Of a stretch of DNA of 64,000 nucleotides, positions 9,164 through 36,972 are shown piece by piece. A model generated the notes under the pieces. That model made no database searches, had not been told where the DNA came from, and worked only from the letters and a program-made list of their open reading frames with translations. Location: assembly GCA_018657525.1 (NCBI GenBank), contig JABHWZ010000002.1:84590-148589 (forward strand), written 5' to 3'. The stretch comes from an archaeon. Lineage in GTDB: Archaea > Nanobdellota > Nanobdellia > Pacearchaeales > GW2011-AR1. Position 1 is the first letter of the stretch, and each line of letters starts with the position of its first letter. Position numbers and translations under genes: made by a program.

Positions 9164-9664
9164 TTATTTACTTCCCTCAATCTTAGATTTAATTTCACTA
9201 AATGTTTTTGAAAAATCTTCTTTTAAGTTTTTCCCTTCAATTCTTTCCTGTTCTGGAAACGCTTCTTCCTTACATTGAATTTCTAATCCTGAATCAATAA
9301 GTCCTTTAATAAAAGAATAAACTTTTGTCTTGTAACTTGTTTTTTGCATTCCTAAATCCACAATCGGCGTTTCTAATTTCTTGTCTTGAATTTTTTTACC
9401 CATCAAATATCCAGTTAAATACGACGCTGGAATTGACTTTAAACTTCCTTTTGATTTTTCAGGCCACCCGCATTTTAACAACTCTTTTGAATTAAGAGTC
9501 ATTACTATTTTATCTTGAGCAGCTTCGCTTGTAACATATTGCGCAAGAGCAAACTTGTTTGATTTTCTAAAAACTAATCTCGGTTTCCCCCCCTTCAACA
9601 ATTTAAGTCTAACTAAATAATTCGTCTTCCCTTCTCTCCTTCTTCGTTTTGCTATTCTTTTCAT
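9164..9664 (-). CDS. rpl18: 50S ribosomal protein uL18 (L5e)
   Basis: KRRRREGKTNYLVRLKLLKGGKPRLVFRKSNK is the uL18 N-terminus. The ATG at 9664 forms an ATGA overlap with the upstream ORF. Confidence 0.9.
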   Translation of the reverse strand: MKRIAKRRRREGKTNYLVRLKLLKGGKPRLVFRKSNKFALAQYVTSEAAQDKIVMTLNSKELLKCGWPEKSKGSLKSIPASYLTGYLMGKKIQDKKLETPIVDLGMQKTSYKTKVYSFIKGLIDSGLEIQCKEEAFPEQERIEGKNLKEDFSKTFSEIKSKIEGSK

Positions 9665-9981
9665 TTTCTTAATCCCTCCCATATTTTTTGTAAATCTCTA
9701 TATCCTCGACATTTTTTTGTAAAGACTGGTTGAGCGGTTCTGTTTGTTCCAGGCAAAAAAAGACCTTCTTTATCAATTTCTGAAACTTCTCCTTTGTAAA
9801 TATCAAAACTGAAGACATCATCTCCCACCAAGTTTGATCTAGTTAAAACTAATTGACCTTCTTTAGGAGCATTCCCAAAGAAAAATTTTCTAAGTTCAGG
9901 ATTTCTTTCAACTCTCCCCATAAAACCTATATAATAATAATCTACTGAAGTATCATATACTCTCCCGACTTCAGCATTCAT
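9661..9981 (-). CDS. hypothetical protein (106 aa) intercalated between rpl19e and rpl18
   Basis: The ORF fills the junction exactly, with ATGA overlaps at both ends. It has no r-protein similarity and carries the SD GGGAGGG for rpl18 in its last codons. Confidence 0.65.
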   Translation of the reverse strand: MNAEVGRVYDTSVDYYYIGFMGRVERNPELRKFFFGNAPKEGQLVLTRSNLVGDDVFSFDIYKGEVSEIDKEGLFLPGTNRTAQPVFTKKCRGYRDLQKIWEGLRK

Positions 9982-10382
9982 TTTCTTAATCCTCCAATAT
10001 ACTCTTTCAAGTTTGCTTTACTTCTAAACATTTTATTTCTTATCCTCTTCCTAATTTCATTCACTTCTTCGATATTTAAGGCTTTTTGTTTTTTCAATTC
10101 ATTAACATAGGCTCTCAACTTCCGAGTCATAATCACATATTTCTTTTTTCTATCATTGACTTTCTTTCTAATATTCCCCGTACTTCTTTTAACCTTTGTC
10201 TTAATTTTTTTTCTTCCTTGAACATTCTTAATCAAAATTGCTCCATCCTTTAATAAATCCCGAATATCTTGCTTTGTAATGGCCTCTTTAATTTCTTCTA
10301 ATCGCGCTTCTACAAAATTAATTCTTGCTTTCCCCACATTTAATGTTCTTGCTGTTAATTCTTTCTTTTTCCTTAAGTTCAT
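9978..10382 (-). CDS. rpl19e: 50S ribosomal protein eL19
   Basis: LRKKKELTARTLNVGKARI...IKEAITKQDIRDL is the L19e pattern. Confidence 0.9.
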   Translation of the reverse strand: MNLRKKKELTARTLNVGKARINFVEARLEEIKEAITKQDIRDLLKDGAILIKNVQGRKKIKTKVKRSTGNIRKKVNDRKKKYVIMTRKLRAYVNELKKQKALNIEEVNEIRKRIRNKMFRSKANLKEYIGGLRK

Positions 10383-10795
10383 TTTTTATTATCCTTCGCT
10401 TTTTTAGTTGATTCTTTTTTCTCATTCTTTTTCAAAAACTTTTTTTCATTTAAATTTAAAATTTTAATTCCTAATTCTTTTGCTTTTTTAACCAATTCAA
10501 TCTTTTTCTTTTTTCCAATACTCGCCAAAGTAATCTCCTTACTTTTAACATTTTCTAATTCTTTCATATTTTCAATTGTTTCAATTTTAATTCTATCTGC
10601 CTCGCCTTTTTTATAACCAATTGCTACAACAGCGGGATATCCTTTTTTTTGCTCTCTCATTTTATTATCTCTTCCAGTTGGTCTTCGCCATTTTTGATTT
10701 TTCTTAGTTCTCTTTCCAAGTTTAACATATCGAGCTGCATCTCTTCTCAAAAATTTCGGCTTTTTCTTTTTAATAGTTTTATTTTCTTCAACCAT
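10379..10795 (-). CDS. rpl32e: 50S ribosomal protein eL32
   Basis: KPKFLRRDAARYVKLGKRTKKNQKWRRPTGRDNKMR is the L32e signature. Confidence 0.85.
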   Translation of the reverse strand: MVEENKTIKKKKPKFLRRDAARYVKLGKRTKKNQKWRRPTGRDNKMREQKKGYPAVVAIGYKKGEADRIKIETIENMKELENVKSKEITLASIGKKKKIELVKKAKELGIKILNLNEKKFLKKNEKKESTKKAKDNKK

Positions 10796-11338
10796 TTACA
10801 TTACCTTCCCGGCTTTATTTATAATGAAAATTCCATCCTGGAAAACACGCCTATCCTTATTTGTGATTCTCGTCGCTGTTTCTAAATTAGCCGCAGCTTG
10901 TCCTGCGATTTCTTTGTCTATCGAAGTAACTGTGATAAACTCTTTGTCAACTTTTATCTCAGCTCCTTTCGGAAGTCTTGCAATCCGTGGAATTTTTTCT
11001 CCTAAGAAATTTTTAATTTCCACATCGTCTTCTCTAATCGTAACAGTCATCGGGAAATGATGGAAACAAACCTTCAAGTTATATTCAAATTTTTCTTGCA
11101 CGCCCTTAATCATATTTTCAATATGCGCCCTAAATGTGTTAATTCTTTTCTTTTCTTTTTTAGTTGATTTTTTATTTCCTAAAGTAATTTTATTATCTTT
11201 AATCTCAAAATCTATTTTAGAAAGATTAAATTTCTTTTTATTTTCTCCTTCTTTACCCTTAACAATTAATTCAGAATCTTCTAATTTAACTTCCACTCCT
11301 TCTGGAATTTCAATTGTTTGAAAAATTTCTTTACGCAT
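10796..11338 (-). CDS. rpl6: 50S ribosomal protein uL6
   Basis: IEIPEGVEVKLED..LIVKGKEG and the two-domain repeat fit uL6. The position after S8 also fits. Confidence 0.9.
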   Translation of the reverse strand: MRKEIFQTIEIPEGVEVKLEDSELIVKGKEGENKKKFNLSKIDFEIKDNKITLGNKKSTKKEKKRINTFRAHIENMIKGVQEKFEYNLKVCFHHFPMTVTIREDDVEIKNFLGEKIPRIARLPKGAEIKVDKEFITVTSIDKEIAGQAAANLETATRITNKDRRVFQDGIFIINKAGKVM

Positions 11339-11339
11339 T

Positions 11340-11573
11340 TTATTCTAAATCTCCTTTTAGATAAGTCCTAAATCTTATATTAAAATCCTCAATTTGTTCA
11401 CCGCTCAAATAACGATTACAAACATTGCTAGCTTTAATATATTCTCCAATTATTGCAGGTATTTGGCAATCAATGCTTATTCGACGATCTAAGTGGATCA
11501 TCTCGCTATGAAACTTTTCTAATTTTGCTTCCATTATACTTGCTGCAGCATCTCTAAGTCCCATTTTACACAT
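11340..11573 (-). CDS. hypothetical protein (77 aa) intercalated between rps8 and rpl6
   Basis: There are 1-nt gaps on both sides when started at the ATG at 11573. The SD AAGGAG for rpl6 sits in its last codons. Confidence 0.6.
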   Translation of the reverse strand: MCKMGLRDAAASIMEAKLEKFHSEMIHLDRRISIDCQIPAIIGEYIKASNVCNRYLSGEQIEDFNIRFRTYLKGDLE

Positions 11574-11574
11574 T

Positions 11575-11955
11575 TTAATAAAAGTATGCAATTAAGCACC
11601 CTCCAATTCCTTCTTCTTGAGCTTCTGTATGAGTCATTAAACCTTTATTTGTAGAAACAATAACTACTCCCATATTTCTCGACGGCAGATATCTTCTTCG
11701 ATAATTTTCAATCTGATCTTTATCAACAGTAAATCTCGGCTTGATTGATTTACAATCCATTAAATTACCAATTTCTATTTCCAGAGTTTTTTCCTTCGGA
11801 TTAATTTTATATTTTTTAATTGCTCCTTCTTGCTTCATAATCTTCAAAACTTCAATTAATACATTCGAAATCCGCTTCACTACAATTATATCTTTTCTAG
11901 CTTTCTTTGCATTCCTAATCATATTCAACGCATCCGCAACAGTATCATGTGACAT
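11575..11955 (-). CDS. rps8: 30S ribosomal protein uS8
   Basis: DTVADALNMIRNAKKARK...VVIVSTNKGLMTHTEA...GIGGCLIAYFY is the uS8 pattern. Confidence 0.9.
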   Translation of the reverse strand: MSHDTVADALNMIRNAKKARKDIIVVKRISNVLIEVLKIMKQEGAIKKYKINPKEKTLEIEIGNLMDCKSIKPRFTVDKDQIENYRRRYLPSRNMGVVIVSTNKGLMTHTEAQEEGIGGCLIAYFY

Positions 11956-11956
11956 T

Positions 11957-12313
11957 TTATTCTTGACCTCCTCTACTCATTTGAGTTTTTCTTGAAAGGA
12001 TATCTGCCCCCATTCTTTCATATTGTTCTTGCGGGATACCATATTTGCTTTTAGCCAGAGTTATTGCTTCATCCAATTCTCTTAATTTTCCCCTAAGCTT
12101 TGAACGATCATAACCTACTAGGTAATCTTCTAATTCTGATAGATATTTTATTTTTCCTGGTAAACTCCATCCACTAACTGTTTCTCCATTTAAATGCTCG
12201 AGTGCTTGAGTAATTACTAAGTCCTTCTGTCCGCTTAAATCTTTTGCGGTATTTGTCAATGCTGCTATGAACCTTCTATCTAATTCACTTAATTGTTTCG
12301 TTTCAGTTGTCAT
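11957..12313 (-). CDS. hypothetical protein (118 aa) intercalated between rps14 and rps8
   Basis: There are 1-nt gaps on both sides. The last codons AGA GGA GGT CAA GAA provide the SD GGAGGT for rps8. Confidence 0.65.
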   Translation of the reverse strand: MTTETKQLSELDRRFIAALTNTAKDLSGQKDLVITQALEHLNGETVSGWSLPGKIKYLSELEDYLVGYDRSKLRGKLRELDEAITLAKSKYGIPQEQYERMGADILSRKTQMSRGGQE

Positions 12314-12314
12314 T

Positions 12315-12545
12315 TTAACTATATTTTGTAAAGCCGATTTCTACTGCTAACTTTCGAAAACAGTGTCGACATAAATTTAATCCGTATGAGTTTACTCTTG
12401 CACCAAACCGACCGCAGTTCTCGCATTTTTGCGCAGCAACTCCAAACTTTCTGTCCCTTGGTTTATTATGTTTCAAAAACTTTGCTTTTATTGCTGGTTT
12501 ATTATCCAACTGCGTCATTACTTTTTTCCAATCGCTTGCTGTCAT
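12315..12545 (-). CDS. rps14: 30S ribosomal protein uS14 (zinc-binding type) with an N-terminal extension
   Basis: CENCGRFGARVNSYGLNLCRHCFR is the C-x2-C...C-x2-C uS14 core. Confidence 0.85.
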   Translation of the reverse strand: MTASDWKKVMTQLDNKPAIKAKFLKHNKPRDRKFGVAAQKCENCGRFGARVNSYGLNLCRHCFRKLAVEIGFTKYS

Positions 12546-12880
12546 TTTACTAATCTTGCCTCCCCATATTTTTTTATCAATTTTCTCCCTTCAAAAGTTT
12601 CAGAGTCAAATCTTTCTATTATAATACCCTCTTGATAATTATCTATCGCGAACCTTCCAGCGTAAGCAATTACTTCTTCAATAGGCACCATCCATTGTGT
12701 CCAATTCCTTCCACAAATCCCTTTATCTCCCAATAAAATCATTGTTCCTTCTTCATCCCTTTCTAACAACATAGCATCAAACCTTCCGTCGATGTAATCT
12801 CCTTGATCTAGTACTGGGAAGACGTCCCCGACTTGTAAATTTTTTACTTGTTCCATATTTTCTAATGTTTCATATTTCAT
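12542..12880 (-). CDS. hypothetical acidic protein (112 aa) intercalated between rpl5 and rps14
   Basis: ATGA overlaps at both ends. The SD GGGGAGG for rps14 sits in its last codons. Confidence 0.65.
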   Translation of the reverse strand: MKYETLENMEQVKNLQVGDVFPVLDQGDYIDGRFDAMLLERDEEGTMILLGDKGICGRNWTQWMVPIEEVIAYAGRFAIDNYQEGIIIERFDSETFEGRKLIKKYGEARLVK

Positions 12881-13407
12881 TTTAGTTTACCAATAAATTC
12901 GATTCCGAATTCTTTCTCCATAAATTTAATTATTTCTTCTCGAGTTATAACTTGTCTCTTTGGAATTTTTCCCCGCTTAACTTTCTTCAATTTAACTCTT
13001 CTTCCAGTTCTTTTAAAAGCTACTGTTACATCAAATCCAAGAATTCCTAAATCTCTTTGATATTCAACTCCCGGGATTTCAATATATTCTTTAATCCCAA
13101 ACGAAAAATTGTTCTCGCTGATTTGCTTTTTCTTTAGTTTGTTTTCAATAGCAATAAATAATCTTTTCAATAATTCCTCCTTACCCTTTCTAATTGTAAC
13201 AACTGCCCCAATTTCTAAACCCGGTCTAACTCCTAATGAAGGAATTCTTTTATTTGATTTCGTCTTCGCTGGTTTTCTGTTTGTAACAAGCTGTAAAAGT
13301 TTATATCCCTTCTCAAGATTATCCCCAATCCCGCCTACACTCAACACAACTTTTTCCATCTTAATCGTTCTCATTACATTTTCTGTTTTTATTTTTTCGT
13401 CTGCCAT
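12877..13407 (-). CDS. rpl5: 50S ribosomal protein uL5
   Basis: NVMRTIKMEKVVLSVGGIGD...GILGFDVTV is the uL5 pattern. Confidence 0.9.
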   Translation of the reverse strand: MADEKIKTENVMRTIKMEKVVLSVGGIGDNLEKGYKLLQLVTNRKPAKTKSNKRIPSLGVRPGLEIGAVVTIRKGKEELLKRLFIAIENKLKKKQISENNFSFGIKEYIEIPGVEYQRDLGILGFDVTVAFKRTGRRVKLKKVKRGKIPKRQVITREEIIKFMEKEFGIEFIGKLK

Positions 13408-13408
13408 T

Positions 13409-14059
13409 TTATTCTATTACAATTACCTGTTTATTTAATACTTTGATTGACTTGTCGCCTTCTGAAATTTCTACTGCTTTTCTTTCCTTATCTAGAACTT
13501 TGATAACTCCTTTTTCTCCTGCGTGCTTTCCTTGGAAAACAAGTACCTTTGATTTTTCTTTCAGAGGCAAACATTTTTCTATTTTTTTATCTTTTAAATT
13601 AATCAAAACAGAATCTCCAATATCACATTTAACCTCTGAAATAAAGTTTTTACCGTCGATTAAATTTATCTGAGTTTTTTTACCTTTCAATGTTTTTTTG
13701 TTAATTACTTTTGAAACTTTTTTCCCTGCTTCAGTTGCTTTAATCTCAACCAATTCAAATTTACCTTTGTTAGATAATTCTAATCTATAATGTTTTTTAG
13801 AAGGCACCAAACTTAAAGTATCCAATAAAACTAGTGCATTTTTATCATCTCTAACTTCTTTATTATTTCTCAAAATTAATCTTTCATTAATTGCCTTCTT
13901 AACTTCTTTTCGAGTAGCTGCAACTTTTAAAATATCCCTCAGCACAACCAGTATCGGTAAACCTAAATGTTTCTCAAAGTTAGGACAAACTACATACGCT
14001 GTTCCCTTCTTTGGAATCGGCCAGTTCTTGGGTATTGTTTGTCTCTTTAAATATGCCAT
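13409..14059 (-). CDS. rps4e: 30S ribosomal protein eS4
   Basis: MAYLKRQTIPKNWPIPKKGTAYVV... is the S4e N-terminus, followed by a KOW-like C-terminal part. Confidence 0.9.
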   Translation of the reverse strand: MAYLKRQTIPKNWPIPKKGTAYVVCPNFEKHLGLPILVVLRDILKVAATRKEVKKAINERLILRNNKEVRDDKNALVLLDTLSLVPSKKHYRLELSNKGKFELVEIKATEAGKKVSKVINKKTLKGKKTQINLIDGKNFISEVKCDIGDSVLINLKDKKIEKCLPLKEKSKVLVFQGKHAGEKGVIKVLDKERKAVEISEGDKSIKVLNKQVIVIE

Positions 14060-14407
14060 TTACAATCCTGCCTCCGTTAGTTTTGGATCTAATTTTTCAT
14101 ATTCTGCGCTTCCTTCAAGAAAGCTTCCATTTAAGATATTTTGTCCCATCCAAGAATCCTCTTTATATTCTAAAACGCTAATACTTTTCGGATAAGCAGG
14201 TATAATCCCTCCCAATATTTCAAGACTCCCTGTTGCAGGTCTTCTGACAAGGGTATATAATTTTTTCTCCTCTAAATCAACCTTTGCAACTAATTCGCGT
14301 GACGCACATGGCTTTAATAAAACATCTTTAATCATTATATCATGTAGAGTTCTATCTAAAGAATCCCTCCATGGGTCTATTATTAATTCATGCCCGTTTC
14401 GTATCAT
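14060..14407 (-). CDS. hypothetical protein (115 aa) intercalated between rpl24 and rps4e
   Basis: ATGA overlap with the rpl24 stop and 0-nt gap to the rps4e ATG. The SD GGAGG for rps4e sits in its last codons. Confidence 0.65.
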   Translation of the reverse strand: MIRNGHELIIDPWRDSLDRTLHDIMIKDVLLKPCASRELVAKVDLEEKKLYTLVRRPATGSLEILGGIIPAYPKSISVLEYKEDSWMGQNILNGSFLEGSAEYEKLDPKLTEAGL

Positions 14408-14859
14408 TTTTTCTCCTTGTTTGTTTTAGTTTTTGGATCTATTTTTTTCTCTACTTTTTCTTTCTTCTTTGTCTTTTTAGTTGTTTCTGTTGCAGTCTTT
14501 TTTGTCTTTGCGGTTCTATCTACCATCGAAACAATTTGTAAATTTGACGGTTGCATTTTAATTACAACTTTTGAGCCATCTTGTTTCTTCGCTTGAATTC
14601 CCTCAATTGTAACTTTGCCCTGCTTTGTAAAAACCTGCAAAATTTTCCCTTCTTTACCCTTGAATTTTCCACGCATAATTTTAACTTTGTCCTCTTTTCT
14701 TATTACAACATTTCTTGCTCCAACTTTCTTTCTTAAATCTTTAGCTAAATTTACTCCAAGAAGTTTTCTCTTAATATGAATCGGAGCGTTCGCTCTAAAT
14801 TTCCTCTGCTTCCGAGGCTGTTTACTTGCTTTCCACGCTGTTGAAAATTCTTTTTTCAT
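14404..14859 (-). CDS. rpl24: 50S ribosomal protein uL24 with a Lys/Thr-rich C-terminal extension
   Basis: KQPRKQRK...IRKEDKVKIMRGKFKGKEGKI is the KOW motif. The ATG at 14859 lies 1 nt after the rpl14 stop. Confidence 0.85.
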   Translation of the reverse strand: MKKEFSTAWKASKQPRKQRKFRANAPIHIKRKLLGVNLAKDLRKKVGARNVVIRKEDKVKIMRGKFKGKEGKILQVFTKQGKVTIEGIQAKKQDGSKVVIKMQPSNLQIVSMVDRTAKTKKTATETTKKTKKKEKVEKKIDPKTKTNKEKK

Positions 14860-14860
14860 T

Positions 14861-15262
14861 TTAATAAACCACTGAAGCGATTTTTGCAACTTGCGGCCAT
14901 CGCTCTAGAACCTCCCTTGCAATTGGTCCTTTAATCTGAGTTCCTTTTGGATTGCCTTTTTCATCTTTCAAAATAGCAACTGCATTATCTTCAAATGCCA
15001 CTCGCTCTCCGCTGTTTCTTCTCCATGATTTTTTCTGTCGAATTATTACTGCGTCAAAAACTTTCCCTTTCATGTCAGGCACGCCCTTCCGGATTGAAAC
15101 CTTTACCCAATCTGCAATTTTAGCACTTACCTGTTTAGATTTTTTAGCTTTAGCCTTTTTAACTGAAACAATTTTAACCATCTTCGCCCCACTATTATCT
15201 GCCGCGGGCATAATTGCACCGAGGTTAAAAGCTGAAGTTGTTCGCGCGCTTATTGCTTTCAT
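14861..15262 (-). CDS. rpl14: 50S ribosomal protein uL14
   Basis: ADNSGAKMVKIVSV...VFDAVIIRQKK..RR..G..V.FEDNA is the uL14 pattern. Confidence 0.95.
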   Translation of the reverse strand: MKAISARTTSAFNLGAIMPAADNSGAKMVKIVSVKKAKAKKSKQVSAKIADWVKVSIRKGVPDMKGKVFDAVIIRQKKSWRRNSGERVAFEDNAVAILKDEKGNPKGTQIKGPIAREVLERWPQVAKIASVVY

Positions 15263-15537
15263 TTTACATCCTCCCCTAATAATCCCTCAACTCTTAAATG
15301 ATTCCATGCTCTACTTCTTCTAATTTCTGCACTTTCACATCCTCCAATGCACCCACATCCTATTTGATATTCTCTAATGGTCACTTTTTCTCCATCCGAG
15401 TAAGCAAATATATTTGTTCCACATTGAGGATTTTGGCATCCAAATAAAACTCCTTTTTGCCCACTCACTAAAATATTCTGTGGGACATATGGATTAGATT
15501 CAAACCTGTGAATATCTTGAGGCCTTATTGCTTTCAT
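15259..15537 (-). CDS. hypothetical Cys-rich protein (92 aa) intercalated between rps17 and rpl14
   Basis: ATGA overlaps at both ends. Its first 14 nt are identical to the rpl14 start (MKAI). CQNPQCG...CGCIGGC is a possible metal site. The SD GGGGAGGA for rpl14 sits in its last codons. Confidence 0.65.
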   Translation of the reverse strand: MKAIRPQDIHRFESNPYVPQNILVSGQKGVLFGCQNPQCGTNIFAYSDGEKVTIREYQIGCGCIGGCESAEIRRSRAWNHLRVEGLLGEDVK

Positions 15538-15971
15538 TTTTTCTCTTCTCCAGATTTATCTTCTTTATTCAGTGTTTCACGATGCTCATGTGAAATGGAT
15601 TTAATAAACACAAAATGGATAATCTTACTCAAAGGTCGGCACTCTTGAATCTGAACTAAGTCCCCAATATTTACTGACGCTTCTAAGCATATTGGCAATC
15701 TAGCATGAAGTTTGGTTCTTGATTTAGTATATCTTTCATATTTTCTTACGTAAACTGTTCTTTCAAGTTCAATTACAATTCTTTTTTTAAATTTCTTGGT
15801 AACTGTTCCTTCAAAGATTCGCCCATGAGTTTTTAATTTTCCATGAATATTACAATCTATATCTTTGCATTCTTTCAGAGTCTCTGCTACTTTTGCTCCC
15901 TTCCGTGCTTCGCGATGCCTATGCGCAATGGCGCTTTCTGTTTTTTTCTTTGTCATTTTCTTTTCTGTCAT
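15534..15971 (-). CDS. rps17: 30S ribosomal protein uS17 with terminal extensions
   Basis: GRIFEGTVTKKFKKRIVIELERTVYVRKYERY...IGDLVQIQECRPLSK is uS17. The ATG at 15971 has AGGTGA 13 nt upstream; the alternative ATG at 16040 would overlap sui1 by 11 nt. Confidence 0.85.
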   Translation of the reverse strand: MTEKKMTKKKTESAIAHRHREARKGAKVAETLKECKDIDCNIHGKLKTHGRIFEGTVTKKFKKRIVIELERTVYVRKYERYTKSRTKLHARLPICLEASVNIGDLVQIQECRPLSKIIHFVFIKSISHEHRETLNKEDKSGEEKK

Positions 15972-16029
15972 TTTTGTGTATGTCACCTTTTTTTCCGGGC
16001 CACCTCGAAGAGGTTCTCGTGACCTTTGG

Positions 16030-16332
16030 TTATTCTTCATCTACGGAATCTTCATCAAATCCCATCTTTCCTAAAAGAGGTTTTATTCTCTTTCGATGAT
16101 CTCCTTGGAGTTCAATTCTGCCATCTTTGTAAGTCCCTCCACAAGCTAACTCATTTTTCAGAGCCTTTGCGGTTTTCTTTACATCGACGCTGTTGTCGAA
16201 CCCACTAACCACAGTAACAATCTTTCCGTACCTTTTCTTGTCGGTTGTTACCTTTATTCTTTGTGAACTTTTTACTATCTGCTCACACACACATGCTTGC
16301 TCAGGCAAGCCACATTTTGGACATATTTCCAT
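16030..16332 (-). CDS. sui1: translation initiation factor aIF1 / SUI1
   Basis: CPKCGLPEQACVCE zinc knuckle plus the SUI1 core (KRYGKIVTVVSGF...LKNELACGGTYKDGRIELQGDHR). Confidence 0.9.
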   Translation of the reverse strand: MEICPKCGLPEQACVCEQIVKSSQRIKVTTDKKRYGKIVTVVSGFDNSVDVKKTAKALKNELACGGTYKDGRIELQGDHRKRIKPLLGKMGFDEDSVDEE

Positions 16333-16334
16333 AT

Positions 16335-16520
16335 TTATTGTGTCCCAACTCCAGTTTTATTAGAGGTGAGTATTCTCGCAATTATTTTTCTGATTTCTTT
16401 GTTTTTAGTACTTCCTGTTTTAGTCGAGCTTGACTTTGATTTTATTAATTCCATTTTCAACTCTTTAATCTTTTTTTCCTTATCTTTCTCGCTTAGTTTT
16501 TGTACTTCTTTGAATTTCAT
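16335..16520 (-). CDS. rpl29: 50S ribosomal protein uL29
   Basis: KEVQKLSEKDKEKKIKELKMELIK...IRKIIARILT is the uL29 pattern. Confidence 0.85.
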   Translation of the reverse strand: MKFKEVQKLSEKDKEKKIKELKMELIKSKSSSTKTGSTKNKEIRKIIARILTSNKTGVGTQ

Positions 16521-16690
16521 TTTATTTCTCCTTTCATTTCTTTTTCTAACTTTGCCATTTTTAGTTGATGAGTTTTAAGGCTCTCTTCTAAAACCTTTCT
16601 ACCTCCAGAAACAGGTATTTCTCCTAAATACTTTTGACATGTCGTTATTGCATGTTTACATTGTGTATATTCTTCTTGATGGTCTTTCAT
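16517..16690 (-). CDS. hypothetical protein (57 aa, MKDHQEEYTQCKHAITTCQKYLGEIPVSGGRKVLEESLKTHQLKMAKLEKEMKGEIK) intercalated between rps3 and rpl29
   Basis: Not in the ORF track (under 60 aa). I translated it by hand: 58 codons, with ATGA overlaps to both the rps3 stop and the rpl29 start. The SD AAGGAG for rpl29 sits in its last codons. Confidence 0.55.
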   Translation of the reverse strand: MKDHQEEYTQCKHAITTCQKYLGEIPVSGGRKVLEESLKTHQLKMAKLEKEMKGEIK

Positions 16691-17394
16691 TTCTTTGCCT
16701 CCTCGACTTTTTTAGTTGCTTTCTTTCTTGTGCTCTTCTTTTTCTTAGGTTTTAAACTTACATCTTTTAGTTTCATATTTTCTTTTAACTTATTAATCAT
16801 GGCCTCATCAATAACTACTTTATCTGTCAGTTTTACATAAGGGGATAAAATTGCAACTTTAATTCCTACAACTCCTGGTTTAGTCATCGCAACTGCTTGC
16901 GCCCTATCTACTAACTTTGCACTCTCTCCCGCTTTTTTCAAATATCCCTGAGCAAATCTCCATGTTTTTGCCCTAGTGCTCGGAAGCTTTCCACTCAATT
17001 TAAGTTCTGCACCCAAGGCTCCAGCTTTCATTATTGTCTCCAATGCTCTATAAGCTATAACTTTAAATTTCAAAGGTCCAACTCTTTCCAGACCCAACGC
17101 AATTTCATCCGCCATTAATTGTGCATCAAGCTCAGGCTCAGTTATCTCCTTTATTTCCACATGAGGATTAGCTAATTTGAATTCCTTTTTCAAAAATTCA
17201 GTTAATTCTCCAATTCTCTCACCCTTTCTACCAATAACTAATCCAGGTTTATGCGTCGATACAATAATTTTTTCACCAACCGGAGTGTATTCAATTTCAA
17301 CTTTGCTGGCCTTACCCTTTCCAAGCGATGTTTTAACATATTCTTTAACTGCGAATTCTTCTTTTTTCAAAGCTACTGATTTTCTTTCTTCCAT
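16687..17394 (-). CDS. rps3: 30S ribosomal protein uS3 with a Lys-rich C-terminal tail
   Basis: KH domain (VIGRKGERIGELTEFLKKEF) plus the uS3 C-terminal domain. Confidence 0.95.
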   Translation of the reverse strand: MEERKSVALKKEEFAVKEYVKTSLGKGKASKVEIEYTPVGEKIIVSTHKPGLVIGRKGERIGELTEFLKKEFKLANPHVEIKEITEPELDAQLMADEIALGLERVGPLKFKVIAYRALETIMKAGALGAELKLSGKLPSTRAKTWRFAQGYLKKAGESAKLVDRAQAVAMTKPGVVGIKVAILSPYVKLTDKVVIDEAMINKLKENMKLKDVSLKPKKKKSTRKKATKKVEEAKK

Positions 17395-17395
17395 T

Positions 17396-17965
17396 TTATT
17401 TCTTTGCCCCCTTATTTACTTTCTTTTCTGTTACTACAATTTTAAGATGAGTTCTTTTTCTTTTTATTCGCCCAAATCTTCCAAAAGGTCGAGCCGCTTT
17501 ATTTGCAACAGCCTCGGTGATTATCGGTGCTTCAAGTCCATTAACATTTGCATTGCCTCGTAAACCCTTTAAGATTATAATAAATTCTCCTGATGCTTTT
17601 CCTGGAAATCTGCCTGACATGATTCCTTTACCCTTTCTATGTGGAATTTCCCCAATCATTGGAACTGCTTTTTTCTTCCGTATAACTAATTCCAAATCTT
17701 CCATTGCTTTTTCAATAGTTTTACCTTTAATAAATTTACAAATAAATTTTGCATCCAAAGTTGAAATTGGCACGCTAGTTGAATTAACTTCTGCTTTATC
17801 TCGCTTGACTATTTTTTGTTGAACCGGTTTCTTTGTTTCTTTTTTAACTTCTTCAACTTTCTTATCCTTTTTTATTTCTGTAACTGGAACCCTTGCCCCA
17901 GCTTTTGATTGCTTCTTCATTGTCTTCGAAGTTTTCTGTTCTGGGTTATAATTTTTTTCTGTCAT
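17396..17965 (-). CDS. rpl22: 50S ribosomal protein uL22 with an N-terminal Lys-rich extension
   Basis: AKFICKFIKGKTIEKAMEDLE...GRFPGKASGEFIIILKGLRGNA is the uL22 pattern. Confidence 0.9.
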   Translation of the reverse strand: MTEKNYNPEQKTSKTMKKQSKAGARVPVTEIKKDKKVEEVKKETKKPVQQKIVKRDKAEVNSTSVPISTLDAKFICKFIKGKTIEKAMEDLELVIRKKKAVPMIGEIPHRKGKGIMSGRFPGKASGEFIIILKGLRGNANVNGLEAPIITEAVANKAARPFGRFGRIKRKRTHLKIVVTEKKVNKGAKK

Positions 17966-18020
17966 TGTGTTTTTTGTTCTGCAAAAAATGCAGTTAAAAT
18001 GTTTGCCATTTTGTCTTTAT

Positions 18021-18416
18021 TTAGTGTTTACTTAAAGTTTTTGTCCCCTTTGTAGACCCAACTCCTGCTTTTCCATGGTTAACTCTTCCTCTTGTCGGAG
18101 AGAATTCCCCAAAATAACGTCCAAGCATTTCAATAGTTATATCAGTTGGAATAAATTTATTTCCATTATGAATTTGTATTCTCATTCCAACTAAATCTGG
18201 AACAACAATCAAATCTCTTAAATGAGTTCTGATCTGTTTACCATTTGCTACTTTTTTCTTAGCTCTTGCCACAAAATTTTCTATATCTTGGAAATTTCTC
18301 AAAACCGTTCTCCTTTCTCTCGACTTCAAAAGTTTCGCAAATTCTCTTACATCTAGAGTTTTCAGTTCTTCAATTTTCTTTCCTCGAAATGTTAATTCCT
18401 TTTTTCCTAATACCAT
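18021..18416 (-). CDS. rps19: 30S ribosomal protein uS19
   Basis: IRTHLRDLIVVPDLVGMRIQIHNGNKFIPTDITIEMLGRYFGEFSPTR is uS19. The ATG at 18416 lies 1 nt after the upstream stop; the track start at 18530 runs through the neighbouring ORF. Confidence 0.9.
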   Translation of the reverse strand: MVLGKKELTFRGKKIEELKTLDVREFAKLLKSRERRTVLRNFQDIENFVARAKKKVANGKQIRTHLRDLIVVPDLVGMRIQIHNGNKFIPTDITIEMLGRYFGEFSPTRGRVNHGKAGVGSTKGTKTLSKH

Positions 18417-18417
18417 T

Positions 18418-18669
18418 TTAATCTGTTCCTTGCCTCCAATCCTTAGCTGAGCGATAATTTCCATCATACAAACATTTTTTACATCCTTGATCACTACTAG
18501 AGTATGTGCAATAGTGAGAAATTGCTCCACTAGATTTCATATATGGGGCCCAAGTTTCTTTTCTCCCTTTTTGAGCAGGGCAATCTTTTTCAAATTCTCT
18601 TAACATTCCCATTACTTTTATTGCTTCACTATTATCTTCTTCTGTGCTTGTCGTTGTTTTTTTTACCAT
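18418..18669 (-). CDS. hypothetical Cys-containing protein (83 aa) intercalated between rpl2 and rps19
   Basis: There are 1-nt gaps on both sides. The SD GGAGG for rps19 lies near its 3' end. Confidence 0.6.
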   Translation of the reverse strand: MVKKTTTSTEEDNSEAIKVMGMLREFEKDCPAQKGRKETWAPYMKSSGAISHYCTYSSSDQGCKKCLYDGNYRSAKDWRQGTD

Positions 18670-18670
18670 T

Positions 18671-19381
18671 TTATTTTTTCTTACCTGTTCTTTTCGGCCT
18701 GATTAATCCAACTTTCTGTCCAGGTGCTGAATTTCTTTTTGCAATCCTTGATTTAGGAACCTTTCCTCTTCCCGAACCAAACGGATGATCAATTGCATTC
18801 ATTTTACAAGCAGATGTCCTCGGCCATAATTTATTTTTTGACTTTTTCATGTGATGTTTTTTACCCGCTTTCAATATCGGTTTGTCTAGTCTCCCGTGAC
18901 CTGCAACTACTCCTACAATAGCCCGACATTTTCCATTTAACTTCTTTTCCTTTTTAGAAGGCAGAAGCACATAGATTGAATCTCCCACAATTCTACTTAT
19001 CATTGCAGAACTTCCTGCACTTTTCATAAGCTTCCCACCGTCGCCAGTTCTTGATTCAATGCAATGAATTGGAGTTTTAACCGGGATATCTGCAACCTTC
19101 ATAATGTTCCCATCTTTAACTTCTTTACTTTCAAAATTAATCTTTTGCCCTTCTTGCATTCCCTTAAATGCCGGAACATAAAAATAACTTTTTTTATTTT
19201 CTTTAATATATTCAATTTTTGCTAACGGTGCAGTGTGCGCCTTCGACGCCAATAATTCAACAACAATCCCTTCTCCAGATAATCGCGGCGGATATTGAAT
19301 CTTGTAAATAAACGATTTCTTGTTTACTCTATAAGTTTTACTTCCTTTCCCACGTCTTTGCATAATAATTCTTTTTCCCAT
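18671..19381 (-). CDS. rpl2: 50S ribosomal protein uL2
   Basis: GGKLMKSAGSSA...VAGHGRLDKP..KAG...MNAIDHPFGSGRG is uL2. Confidence 0.95.
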   Translation of the reverse strand: MGKRIIMQRRGKGSKTYRVNKKSFIYKIQYPPRLSGEGIVVELLASKAHTAPLAKIEYIKENKKSYFYVPAFKGMQEGQKINFESKEVKDGNIMKVADIPVKTPIHCIESRTGDGGKLMKSAGSSAMISRIVGDSIYVLLPSKKEKKLNGKCRAIVGVVAGHGRLDKPILKAGKKHHMKKSKNKLWPRTSACKMNAIDHPFGSGRGKVPKSRIAKRNSAPGQKVGLIRPKRTGKKK

Positions 19382-19382
19382 C

Positions 19383-19655
19383 TTACATTAATCTCCTTTG
19401 CTTTATTGTTCTTGGAAATCCATATTCTCTCGCGCCTTGCCTTTTGATATATTTCACGTCTACATATTTCATCTGGCCTTCTACAGTAAATATAATCTCT
19501 CTCCGGAGTGGTGCTAAACAATGTCTTATCGGGCTATTTTGCCTACGCTCTTTTATAACAATTCCCTCTCCTACTTCCGGGATTAATACAAGAGCACCTT
19601 CTTCTTTTGCAGTTCTCATTTCAATAGTTGTCATATTTCCAATATTTTTCTCCAT
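19383..19655 (-). CDS. hypothetical Arg-rich protein (90 aa) intercalated between rpl23 and rpl2
   Basis: TAATG overlap with the rpl23 stop and a 1-nt gap to rpl2. The SD AAGGAG for rpl2 sits in its last codons. Confidence 0.6.
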   Translation of the reverse strand: MEKNIGNMTTIEMRTAKEEGALVLIPEVGEGIVIKERRQNSPIRHCLAPLRREIIFTVEGQMKYVDVKYIKRQGAREYGFPRTIKQRRLM

Positions 19656-19912
19656 TATATAATACCTATTTTAGTCGCCAGGTCAATTGCTGGAAACTCC
19701 TTTTTTAATTTAACGTAAGTGTATTTTTTATTATTTCTAATTGATGTTCTAACCTTTTCAACCTTAACTTCAAATAATTCCTCAACTGTTTTCTTAACTT
19801 CGTCTTTTGAAAATTTCGGACTGACTGTGAAAGTTATAACATTATCTTTTTCAATTAACATAACTGCTTTTTCCGTCGTTATTGGTTTAAGTTGAACTCC
19901 GATTGTTTTCAT
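19655..19912 (-). CDS. rpl23: 50S ribosomal protein uL23
   Basis: KPITTEKAVMLIEKDNVITFTVSPKFSKDEVKKTVEELFEVKVEKVRT is uL23. Confidence 0.9.
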   Translation of the reverse strand: MKTIGVQLKPITTEKAVMLIEKDNVITFTVSPKFSKDEVKKTVEELFEVKVEKVRTSIRNNKKYTYVKLKKEFPAIDLATKIGII

Positions 19913-20157
19913 TTTTTATTTTTCCCTATCTGTAAAAGACTTTTTAATTCTGATGTTCGTTCGAAAACTAAAATATCTGTCCCATGGACTTCCAAGATCC
20001 TAGAATTAAATCGATACCCGCTATCAGTTCCCTTTAATCCAAAACAATGCCAAATTGTATCTTTATATGAGTATTCTTTAAAGTATTCTGCTTCTACAAC
20101 TAAGTTTTCATGTTGAGCATCAATTAAAGTATACATTGAATCAAGACTTAATGTCAT
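19909..20157 (-). CDS. hypothetical protein (82 aa) intercalated between rpl4 and rpl23
   Basis: ATGA overlaps at both ends; no recognisable motif. Confidence 0.6.
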   Translation of the reverse strand: MTLSLDSMYTLIDAQHENLVVEAEYFKEYSYKDTIWHCFGLKGTDSGYRFNSRILEVHGTDILVFERTSELKSLLQIGKNKK

Positions 20158-20975
20158 TTCTTAGCCTCCACTTTTTTAATTCCCTTGAACTTATTATTTA
20201 ATTCTTCAACTGCTTTTTCAGTATAAACTGTTAATCTTCCAAGACCACCATTTGCTAAATTATCCACTCCCAAGTTCCCAGCTTGAACAACATCTATAAT
20301 TGTTGATTTTACTTTTTCGTCTTTACCTAAAACTAAAAGCATACCTGCAGATTTTTTGTACTTTCTTCCTCTTCGTGAACCTCTTCCTGCTCGAACTTTC
20401 TTAGTTTGAAGTGCAATTTCAAATAATGTTTCTCCCAAAATTTTCTTTAAACTATCTTTCAATTCTTTTGCTTTCAAAGAACTTAATTTTGAATCAACAA
20501 TAAACGGAACCTGTTTTTCTAATTTTTCTATTCTTTGATATTTGTGCTGGATATATTCTACATTCGCTGTCGCGCTTAACGCAGATTCTAAAGCTATTTT
20601 CATTTCCTTTTTATTTATTTTTAAAATATTAATCATTGAAGTTGGTTTTGGTGGATGGGCTCTTCGTCCTCCACGAGTATTCGGTGATGTGGCCCCAACC
20701 CAATTAAATTGTGTTCCTCGTCGTGACATTTGTTTTCTTGGAACTCTTGAAGCTCCTCGCCCGTATCCTGATTTCCAAACATGTCTTCTACGAATTAATT
20801 TTCCCGACGCCGACGCTTGAAGTCCTGCCATAGGTGATGGCCCATAAGGTTGCTTTGTTTTCTTAACTTCCAAAACTTTCGCAACAATATCTTCTCGAAC
20901 TTTTTTAGAAAAATAACTAGGACTATCCATTTCCTTTCCTTGCTTTCCGTCTATTTGATATATTTTAATTTTCAT
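20154..20975 (-). CDS. rpl4: 50S ribosomal protein uL4 (L1e)
   Basis: QPYGPSPMAGLQASA...GRGASRVPR...GGRRAHPPK is archaeal uL4. Confidence 0.9.
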   Translation of the reverse strand: MKIKIYQIDGKQGKEMDSPSYFSKKVREDIVAKVLEVKKTKQPYGPSPMAGLQASASGKLIRRRHVWKSGYGRGASRVPRKQMSRRGTQFNWVGATSPNTRGGRRAHPPKPTSMINILKINKKEMKIALESALSATANVEYIQHKYQRIEKLEKQVPFIVDSKLSSLKAKELKDSLKKILGETLFEIALQTKKVRAGRGSRRGRKYKKSAGMLLVLGKDEKVKSTIIDVVQAGNLGVDNLANGGLGRLTVYTEKAVEELNNKFKGIKKVEAKK

Positions 20976-21205
20976 TTTCTTTTAAAATCTTCTTGTTCAA
21001 GATATAAAATATCTCTAGTAACGTGAACTCCTTCACTGCAAGCAATTCCTTTTCCGTCAGAGGCCACACCTAAATAAGCACTTCTTTCCCCCTCTAATTG
21101 GGAAATTACTCCCATGCATTTTTTCATATCCCCATTTATATCAATCTCTGTTTTGTATGCAGGACAAGTTTTTGCACAACTACATAGGATTCCTGCTATT
21201 TTCAT
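20972..21205 (-). CDS. hypothetical Cys-rich protein (77 aa) intercalated between rpl3 and rpl4
   Basis: ATGA overlaps at both ends. Contains a CSCAKTCP...C...C pattern. Confidence 0.6.
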   Translation of the reverse strand: MKIAGILCSCAKTCPAYKTEIDINGDMKKCMGVISQLEGERSAYLGVASDGKGIACSEGVHVTRDILYLEQEDFKRK

Positions 21206-35222: not shown

Positions 35223-35237
35223 TTTATTGTTTTCCTC
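35219..35237. repeat. 19-nt perfect direct repeat (CCATTTTATTGTTTTCCTC on the plus strand) spanning the stop/start junction, copy 1
   Basis: Identical to 35430-35448. On the coding strand it reads GAGGAAAACAATAAAATGG, i.e. -GKQ stop, A, ATG G. Confidence 0.9.
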
Positions 35238-35433
35238 TCCCAGAATTTAGTTCTGTTTGAGTTGAATATCTATTACAAATTTGATAATCATTTGGACAAC
35301 TCATTGCCCAGAATCGATCTATTTCACTTGCGCAGGGACTACCATCATATAAAAACGGACACATCTTTCCTTCTTCTTTCAAATTTTCAAGTCTTTGAGT
35401 AATTTCTTCTGACATTATTAAATTTTCTGCCAT
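35224..35433 (-). CDS. hypothetical Cys-rich protein (69 aa) intercalated upstream of rpl12
   Basis: There are 1-nt gaps on both sides when started at the ATG at 35433. Contains a CPF...C...C...C pattern and is flanked by the 19-nt perfect repeat. Confidence 0.6.
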   Translation of the reverse strand: MAENLIMSEEITQRLENLKEEGKMCPFLYDGSPCASEIDRFWAMSCPNDYQICNRYSTQTELNSGRGKQ

Positions 35434-36723: not shown

Positions 36724-36972
36724 TTATTCTATCACCTTCCTTTTTAATTTTCCGTTAATTATTTCATATGTTCTGGAAAATTCTTCCTCTGTCCCATAAT
36801 TAGTATAAACTCGACTTCCTTCCTCTCCCCAAATAAAAACATAGTTCTCTTCTATTGATCCAGATAAATTATGAACTATTTGTTTCGCCTCTCTTCCATT
36901 TAAAACTTCTAAAAGTCCTTTTCGTCCATCATCAACTTCTCTTCCAATCCATTGTTTCCAATTATTTTCCAT
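36724..36972 (-). CDS. hypothetical protein (82 aa) intercalated between rpl1 and rpl10
   Basis: There are 1-nt gaps on both sides. Its last codons encode GGAAGGTGAT, the SD for rpl10. Confidence 0.6.
   Translation of the reverse strand: MENNWKQWIGREVDDGRKGLLEVLNGREAKQIVHNLSGSIEENYVFIWGEEGSRVYTNYGTEEEFSRTYEIINGKLKRKVIE

Follow-up and report, generated by a model that had tools for sequence, protein, structure and literature searches.

How can additional genes be accommodated in a ribosomal-protein (r-protein) superoperon, a gene array that is among the most conserved known and that needs balanced expression? The question is posed by the genome of a tiny marine DPANN archaeon of the Pacearchaeota/Woesearchaeota type (hereafter G000; assembly of 0.83 Mb in 14 contigs, G+C content of 32%), whose nearest named relatives are metagenome-assembled genomes (MAGs) labelled Pacearchaeota, Woesearchaeota or Nanoarchaeota. 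The 64,000-nt stretch of DNA that was analysed (the window, corresponding to positions 84590-148589 of contig C8; coordinates below are those of the window unless a contig is named) carries on its minus strand the archaeal superoperon from rpl3 to rpl15 (22155 down to 7375), the junctions of which hold 11 additional open reading frames (ORFs) of 57-118 codons, designated X0 to X10. Two further inserted ORFs, X11 and X12, are located in the rpl1-rpl10-rpl12 operon. The inserts are exact start-to-stop units sitting at r-protein start codons, to which they are coupled at -4 or +1 nt, and the spacing at all 22 junctions beside X0-X10 is -4, -1, 0 or +1 nt, i.e. the co-directional stop/start overlap or few-nt gap known from coupled gene pairs (Huber et al. 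2019, PMC6728339). The tails of most of these inserts hold a Shine-Dalgarno (SD) site for the r-protein gene that follows.

Each insert is single-copy in G000 and unrelated to the others, in which they differ from near-identical multicopy elements such as MIRUs (mycobacterial interspersed repetitive units). No Pfam match was obtained for any of the 13, nor for nine orphan inserts of relatives, and the insert interiors gave no second match within the G000 genome. Diverged or frameshifted copies of neighbouring genes were ruled out as a source, tblastx and blastn searches with the insert interiors having returned nothing.

The initial annotation had proposed that the SD sequences of the r-protein genes are encoded inside the last codons of the inserts. 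Each of the ten SD strings that it quoted has a single exact match, which is on the minus strand and runs up to the start codon indicated, and the C-terminal peptides that it listed are correct. The anti-SD on which the proposal depends is also in place: the 3' end of the 16S rRNA is GGAUCACCUCCU, which contains CCUCC. The 3' part of the gene lies at one end of the contig that includes the window, reads ...CUGCAGAUGGAUCACCUCCU and was aligned to positions 828-1478 of the 1478 positions of the Rfam model RF01959 (archaeal SSU), i.e. through the last position. The 16S gene is split across two contig ends (C10:210205-211260 and C8:217763-218383), which overlap by about 250 nt with several differences; this suggests that two rRNA variants, or strain heterogeneity, broke the assembly.

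SD strength was scored as the hybridisation energy (dG, in kcal/mol) of the 22 nt at -24 to -3 of each start codon with GAUCACCUCCU. Genome-wide, a dG of -6 or lower was found for 47% of the genes located at most 15 nt from an upstream gene on the same strand, compared with 16% of random coding 20-mers and 9-22% of the other, non-coupled genes, and the start positions of GGAGG motifs peak 10-18 nt ahead of the start codon. Leading genes mostly have no SD, while genes abutting an upstream gene use one; coupled genes in G000 generally have their SD inside the gene that precedes them. With neighbours spaced at -4 to +1 nt, an SD placed 3-15 nt before the start must fall in the last three to six codons of the upstream gene, and GGAGG read in the three frames yields Gly-Gly, x-Arg and Glu-x tails, which explains the Gly/Glu/Arg-rich C-termini of the inserts. 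Intragenic SDs of this type support termination-reinitiation in Haloferax and in E. coli (Huber et al. 2019, PMC6728339).

A dG of -7 or lower was reached in the tails of 11 of the 13 inserts, namely those preceding the genes of L2, S19, L29, L14, S4e, S14, S8, L6, L18, L10 and L12. Only 11% of the gene tails without a coupled downstream gene reach this value (binomial p = 2e-9), as do 37% of all tails preceding a coupled gene (p = 6e-4). These sites are complementary to the host's own 16S 3' end and lie inside the upstream ORF with spacers of 3-15 nt, as in the pairs of Huber et al. (2019). By junction type, the mean dG is -8.5 for r-protein genes after an insert, -6.3 for inserts after an r-protein gene and -6.6 for r-protein genes after an r-protein gene. 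The same geometry is seen at the uninterrupted junctions leading into S3 (-9.1), L32e (-7.6), L30 (-10.6) and L15 (-10.0), a comparison that the initial annotation had suggested, and in the reverse direction, where the tails of rpl4, rps3, rpl19e, rpl24, rpl3 and rps17 hold the SDs for X1, X4, X10, X6, X0 and X5, so that r-protein tails supply the SD to six of the 11 inserts of the main operon. Apart from this wider occurrence of the geometry, we found one departure from the initial picture: the gene of L4, behind X0, and that of L23, behind X1, have no SD or a weak one.

We regard the motifs as probably genuine intragenic SD sites of a translationally coupled archaeal operon. The earlier view that the inserts are not parked in spacers held up, since they abut or overlap both neighbours, show native codon usage and in 11 of 13 cases hold the next SD, which supports the idea, as far as the sequence can speak to it, that they would be functionally woven into the translational coupling. 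The sole loose junction of the operon is rps19/rpl22, where a 55-nt spacer without an SD (17966-18020) may contain an internal promoter and give rise to a leaderless rpl22.

Several observations weigh against this reading. Two of the 11 main-operon inserts (X0 and X1) provide no good SD, and the rps19 SD lies 15 nt from the start codon, beyond the 5-13 nt usual in this genome. Within G000, the SDs behind inserts do not significantly exceed those behind r-protein genes in strength (p = 0.09), and the G000-only contrast stays at p = 0.058 once the canonical value of each gene is corrected for. The origin of the tail SD was traced for just three of the 13 inserts, and none of the operon was found in three metatranscriptomes from the same study. 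Finally, removal of the intragenic SD in Haloferax cut re-initiation by only 20-80% (PMC6728339), so that such sites may help rather than be required.

On this reading, an insert placed at an r-protein start codon takes over the ancestral junction at its 5' side, with or without the SD of that junction, and at its 3' side equips the displaced gene with a new SD. Ribosomes finishing the insert would then re-initiate on the r-protein gene, or 30S subunits would bind de novo, in either case helped by the tail SD, and inserts without such a tail site would presumably be selected against.

The operons of 20 relatives and 80 named MAGs, giving 95 distinct operons, were compared with that of G000. 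Of the 80 named loci, 56 contain one or more junction gaps of at least 150 nt, with a maximum of 11 per operon; across the 95 operons, 195 junctions are interrupted, 172 of them by an ORF abutting the gene downstream, and at least 20 different junctions are used by insertions. Junction inserts are hence a lineage-wide habit, while their content is highly variable: the comparison covered 234 inserted ORFs (the 13 of G000 and 221 from relatives), of which 171 are singletons, a genome of the same genus (G001) has no inserts at all, and among the G000 inserts only X7 has a clear relative in the compared operons, X9 having one weak match (at L14/L24 in locus L078). Across the X ORFs, the strength of the preceding SD follows that of the SD which the displaced gene has at the canonical junctions of relatives (Spearman 0.61, p = 0.047), and the SD by which the r-protein gene is now served shows no relation to the relatives' canonical value (rho 0.09). 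The upstream side of each G000 insert is thus the ancestral junction, with a new SD supplied downstream. At rps3/X4 an SD seems to have been gained on the upstream side as well: the S3 tails of relatives are Lys-rich and have no SD, and the rps3 tail of G000 contains GAGGAGGC.

One source of tail SDs is the inserted ORF itself, as in the X7 family. A profile built from X7 and its one relative was searched against 1.84 billion representative proteins and retrieved about ten more proteins of approximately 110 amino acids (E-values from 7e-13 to 6e-4), resulting in a family of 12 members which, by contig context, occupy seven junctions in related archaea: L5/S14 (in G000), S17/L14, L24/S4e, L4/L23, L32e/L19e, S5/L30 and, in the exosome operon, Rrp41/Rrp42. 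All members are exact ORFs, with coupling at -4 or +1. The conserved tail reads (I/V)KKY-x-E-x-L-K, and in 10 of the 12 members a GGAG/GAGG-type site falls at the Y-[GKQ]-[EG] codons. The AlphaFold2 (AF2) model of X7, made from an 11-sequence alignment (pLDDT 89, pTM 0.83), predicts a beta-rich domain followed by a C-terminal helix, within which the SD codons fall; a Foldseek search of this model against the PDB gave no match with an E-value below 0.07. Among the G000 inserts, it is the X7 family in which the same element is found at different sites, i.e. seven junctions in different genomes. The SD therefore travels with a mobile ORF, and this represents the first direct evidence of an SD-bearing ORF family relocating among essential-operon junctions.

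Two observations concern the wider surroundings of this family. In the exosome operon of L115/L116, an X7-family member lies between Rrp41 and Rrp42 and a second, 106-amino-acid orphan between SBDS and Rrp4, so that junction inserts are not confined to r-protein operons. A giant protein of the representative library (P0005, 2029 amino acids) contains eight repeats that match the X7-family profile at residues 29-60 (E = 9e-15), and the core of the family may be related to this repeat module.

Besides the X7 family, six insert families were found across more than one junction among the relatives. A 233-amino-acid family located at L5/S14 and L19e/L18 keeps GAGGTG/GAGGTT in conserved tail codons. 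In a 155-amino-acid family located at L19e/L18 and L3/L4, the SD lies in locus-specific, Glu-rich C-terminal extensions beyond the conserved domain.

A second source of tail SDs is seen at X10 and X12. In relatives, rpl19e ends in ...TATATTGGAGGATTAAGNAAATGA, encoding YIGGLRK and the stop codon (junction sequence TATATTGGAGGATTAAGAAAATGA), with the rpl18 SD inside. G000 keeps this ancestral rpl19e/rpl18 copy before X10, and a second copy, AATATGGGAGGGATTAAGAAAATGA (IWEGLRK and the stop codon), ends X10, the tail of which is an approximately 24-nt copy of the ancestral junction. The duplication has a 16-nt exact core, GGATTAAGAAAATGAA, longer than in any non-cognate control pair (maximum 13). 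On either side of X12 stands a duplicated junction sequence of 17-19 nt, GGAAAACAATAAAATGG, and the first 17 nt of X5 (AAAATGAAAGCAATAAG) duplicate the start of rpl14; the duplications of all three exceed every non-cognate control pair, and the other ten inserts show a weak excess (p = 0.004). In relatives such duplications are rare, six of 195 lying above the 99th percentile against two expected, and junction duplication as a general source of tail SDs was rejected on these grounds. The tails of X10 and X12 are thus copies of the ancestral junction and not a property of the inserted protein, which points to mixed origins of the tail SDs, ORF-borne in the X7 family and duplicated from the junction at X10 and X12; those of the remaining inserts may have been either brought in or evolved in place.

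These findings raise a more general possibility, to which we give serious but guarded consideration. DPANN archaea of the Pacearchaeota/Woesearchaeota type might harbour a pool of mobile units, each consisting of a single ORF, whose insertion targets are precisely the stop/start junctions of coupled, highly expressed operons (r-protein, exosome), a built-in tail SD keeping the essential downstream gene translated, so that the insertion is tolerated. Of such units, the X7 family would be the first example that can be traced, and the occasional junction duplications of 16-32 nt would be footprints of the insertion reaction.

Alternatively, the insertion of a foreign ORF could break the direct re-initiation relay between r-protein genes, and selection could subsequently build an unusually strong SD in the unconstrained tail, allowing the essential gene downstream to be initiated regardless of the level of translation of the insert. 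This compensation is compatible with the tail motifs being genuine SD sites, of which it is a sharper version, and we consider it possible, if somewhat doubtful. In G000 the SDs after inserts are stronger than those at the canonical junctions of the same genes in relatives (paired Wilcoxon p = 0.01), and over the 95 operons the difference is 1.2 kcal/mol when stratified by gene (Wilcoxon p = 4e-5 and stratified permutation p < 2e-4, for 1307 canonical and 194 interrupted junctions). Only genes that normally have no SD show this gain: it is seen for S8 (-3.5 to -10.0), S14 (-3.5 to -7.4), L24 (-2.0 to -5.0) and L6 (-1.1 to -4.2; the canonical S8/L6 junction of relatives has no SD, with a mean dG of -1.1), and the genes of S14, S8, L6 and L29, which have no SD at the uninterrupted junctions of relatives, have a strong one behind the inserts of G000. 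The excess of the insert tails over the genome's own coupled tails (p = 6e-4) points in the same direction. Against compensation, L14, L23, L18 and L15, which have a good canonical SD, gain nothing or lose, so that the pattern could reflect mere release from the coding constraint of a conserved r-protein C-terminus; the uninterrupted junctions of G000 are likewise about 2 kcal/mol stronger than those of relatives; and the SD of the X7 family is older than the particular junction. As the contrast within G000 is marginal, compensatory strengthening is taken as suggestive only.

It is unlikely that the GGAGG-like runs are a by-product of the inserts' own conserved Gly, Glu and Arg residues without a role in initiation, translation of the r-proteins then relying on re-initiation independent of an SD or on leaderless transcripts that start internally. 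In relatives, numerous canonical junctions do work without an SD (L6, S14, S8, L24, L22), and the X7-family motif sits in a conserved, structured C-terminal helix, as a protein-level origin would have it. Such an origin is difficult to reconcile with the 7-fold enrichment over tails with nothing coupled downstream, with the occurrence of the motif in all three frames of unrelated proteins at the genome's normal SD distance, and with the 155-amino-acid family, in which the SD lies in extensions added after the conserved domain.

The inserts might also not be protein genes for the most part but spacer RNA, translated or not, with the delivery of ribosomes to the next gene as its sole function, much like a relay ORF. 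For 10 of the 13 no relative was found, a single-sequence AF2 model of X10 was poor (pLDDT 51), and none of the inserts is present in the same-genus genome; in a word-indexed search of 5.8e9 proteins, X8 and X7 gave self matches only, X8 being a strict orphan there. An 89%-identical fragment considered as a homologue was rejected, as it belongs to this very strain and stands on a chimeric contig of low coverage. The codon usage of all 13 inserts is as good as that of long genes (log-likelihood ratio of 0.33-0.51 bits per codon, compared with a mean of 0.36 for long genes and a 95th percentile of 0.29 for spurious ORFs) and their GC3 is native; they stay free of stops over 57-118 codons in a genome of 32% GC, and the 12 members of the X7 family are conserved, with a confidently predicted fold. 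These data make a role as mere spacers improbable. The arrangement itself is reproduced with zero differences in contigs from 2012, 2016 and 2017 metagenomes; contigs of four other metagenomes are identical to the window and offered no countable variants for dN/dS. A low-support joint skipping X7 was traced to a relative without X7.

Chance, i.e. purine-rich tails in an A-rich genome where Lys/Glu-rich C-termini are common and a dG of -6 kcal/mol is attained by 16% of random coding 20-mers, is rejected by the comparison with uncoupled gene tails (binomial p = 2e-9).

Table. Inserted ORFs of G000 and SD sites at their junctions (window coordinates; C-terminal tails end at the stop codon; dG in kcal/mol refers to the SD of the downstream gene)
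Feature	Junction	Coordinates	Strand	C-terminal tail	Downstream gene, SD and SD position	dG
X0, 77 aa	rpl3/rpl4	20972..21205	-		rpl4, no SD in tail (exception)	-1.8
X1, 82 aa	rpl4/rpl23	19909..20157	-		rpl23, only weak AGGGAA in tail (exception)	-4.0
SD for X1, strong	in rpl4 tail	20164-20170	-		X1, TGGAGGC	
X2, 90 aa	rpl23/rpl2	19383..19655	-	KQRRLM	rpl2, AAGGAGA, 19392-19398	-7.1
X3, 83 aa	rpl2/rps19	18418..18669	-	DWRQGTD	rps19, TGGAGGC, 18432-18438 (unusually long 15-nt spacer)	-9.3
X4, 57 aa	rps3/rpl29	16517..16690	-	KGEIK	rpl29, AAGGAGA, 16527-16533	-7.1
SD for X4	in rps3 tail (16691-16710)	16697-16704	-	...KKVEEAKK (rps3)	X4, GAGGAGGC	
X5, 92 aa, Cys-rich	rps17/rpl14	15259..15537	-	GEDVK	rpl14, GGGGAGGATGT, 15266-15276	-10.2
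X6, 115 aa	rpl24/rps4e	14060..14407	-	TEAGL	rps4e, CGGAGGC, 14063-14076	-11.1
SD for X6, ancestral	in rpl24 tail	14412-14418	-		X6, AAGGAGA	
X7, 112 aa	rpl5/rps14	12542..12880	-	KKYGEARLVK	rps14, GGGGAGGC, 12551-12565	-11.7
X8, 118 aa	rps14/rps8	11957..12313	-	SRGGQE	rps8, GAGGAGGTC, 11965-11973	-11.3
X9, 77 aa	rps8/rpl6	11340..11573	-	KGDLE	rpl6, AAGGAGA, 11350-11356	-7.1
X10, 106 aa	rpl19e/rpl18	9661..9981	-	IWEGLRK	rpl18, TGGGAGGGATTA, 9670-9681	-13.3
Upstream junction copy (rpl19e tail, SD, ATGA)	rpl19e/rpl18	9978..10001	-		now serving X10	
X11, 82 aa	rpl1/rpl10	36724..36972	-		rpl10, AAGGAAGGTGATA, 36730-36742 (pairs with the extended anti-SD ...AUCACCUCCU)	-13.5
X12, 69 aa, Cys-rich	rpl10/rpl12	35224..35433	-		rpl12, TGGGAGAGGAA, 35232-35242	-9.2

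The junctions of other archaea hold further elements. The L4/L23 junction of L007, L008, L010, L011, L014 and others carries a conserved gene of 209-229 amino acids encoding a DEDDh exonuclease (Pfam RNase_T, E = 3e-13); the cluster comprises 13 ORFs, some of them from duplicate loci, and the rpl23 SD lies in its conserved Pro-Glu codons (CCGGAGG). Metagenome contigs of another organism (L112/L113) have orphan ORFs at five consecutive junctions, much as in G000 (L3/L4, L4/L23, L23/L2, L2/S19 and S19/L22), the ORF at L4/L23 being an X7-family member. At S14/S8 of L009, a mini-ORF of six codons, ATGGAAAACGGAGAAAAATAA, is coupled on both sides and carries the SD; it may represent what is left of an insert or the starting point of one. 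A spacer element of about 55 nt with its own GGAGG (...GTAGGTC..AAAATTTTCATTCATTCAAAA..(C)GGAGGTTATTTTAAATG; L005, L006, L013 and L014) recurs in several genera at S17/L14, L24/S4e, L4/L23, L3/L4 and S8/L6, and one further copy was found in G000 outside the window, on contig C8 near base 184,460; it may be a portable promoter/SD or relay module.

That an SD lies in the upstream gene is textbook coupling, and the finding as first stated is in this respect ordinary. What is new is that orphan or foreign ORFs occupy most junctions of a superoperon, each handing the next essential gene a fresh ribosome-binding site, and that in at least one family this site belongs to the conserved portion of a protein which moves from junction to junction. 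A literature search found no paper on inserted ORFs in DPANN ribosomal operons. The arrangement suggests a simple rule for adding genes to essential operons without polar damage, and it offers a testable handle on the spread and persistence of orphan genes in reduced archaeal genomes.

Among known systems, the coupled pairs of Huber et al. (2019; reviewed by Brown and Wade 2025, PMC12548453) share with the present junctions the co-directional arrangement, the -4/-1/+1 spacing and the SD inside the upstream ORF, together with the archaeal pattern of SDs that are rare at leading genes and common at coupled genes. The upstream partner in those pairs is a functionally related subunit, whereas here it is a lineage-specific inserted ORF, the SD-bearing tail of which, in one family, moves with the ORF between junctions. 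Integron gene cassettes are similarly promoterless, approximately ORF-sized, added to an expressed array and drawn from a very diverse, mostly orphan pool, but no attC-like repeat and no single attachment site was seen at the insert flanks, which share just an A-rich TAAAATGA stop/start consensus and have long cognate repeats at only three of the 13 inserts, differing in position and length. Phage morons, which are extra genes between genes that are adjacent in relatives, typically carry their own promoter and terminator, whereas the inserts described here have neither room nor need for these and appear fused into the translation relay of the host operon. The closest described analogues are the MIRUs, mobile mycobacterial repeats that insert at start codons and contain an internal ORF coupled to the target gene at -4 nt (PMC12548453), presumably limiting the damage to expression. 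Short repeats of a MIRU-like kind do occur at the junctions of a relative: in the Woesearchaeota MAG L080, a hairpin-rich repeat of about 100 nt (TTTCAAAATCTCAGCTGTGCCTTCGCACAGATCGCCATTAAAGATTTTGAAAATACAGAAAA...) is present at L14/L24, S14/S8 and L6/L32e of one operon, the copy at L6/L32e having on its flanks 23 nt duplicated from the rpl6 tail. Compared with MIRUs, which are short, near-identical and spread within one genome, the inserts of G000 are archaeal, 57-118 codons long, unrelated to each other, single-copy and protein-like.

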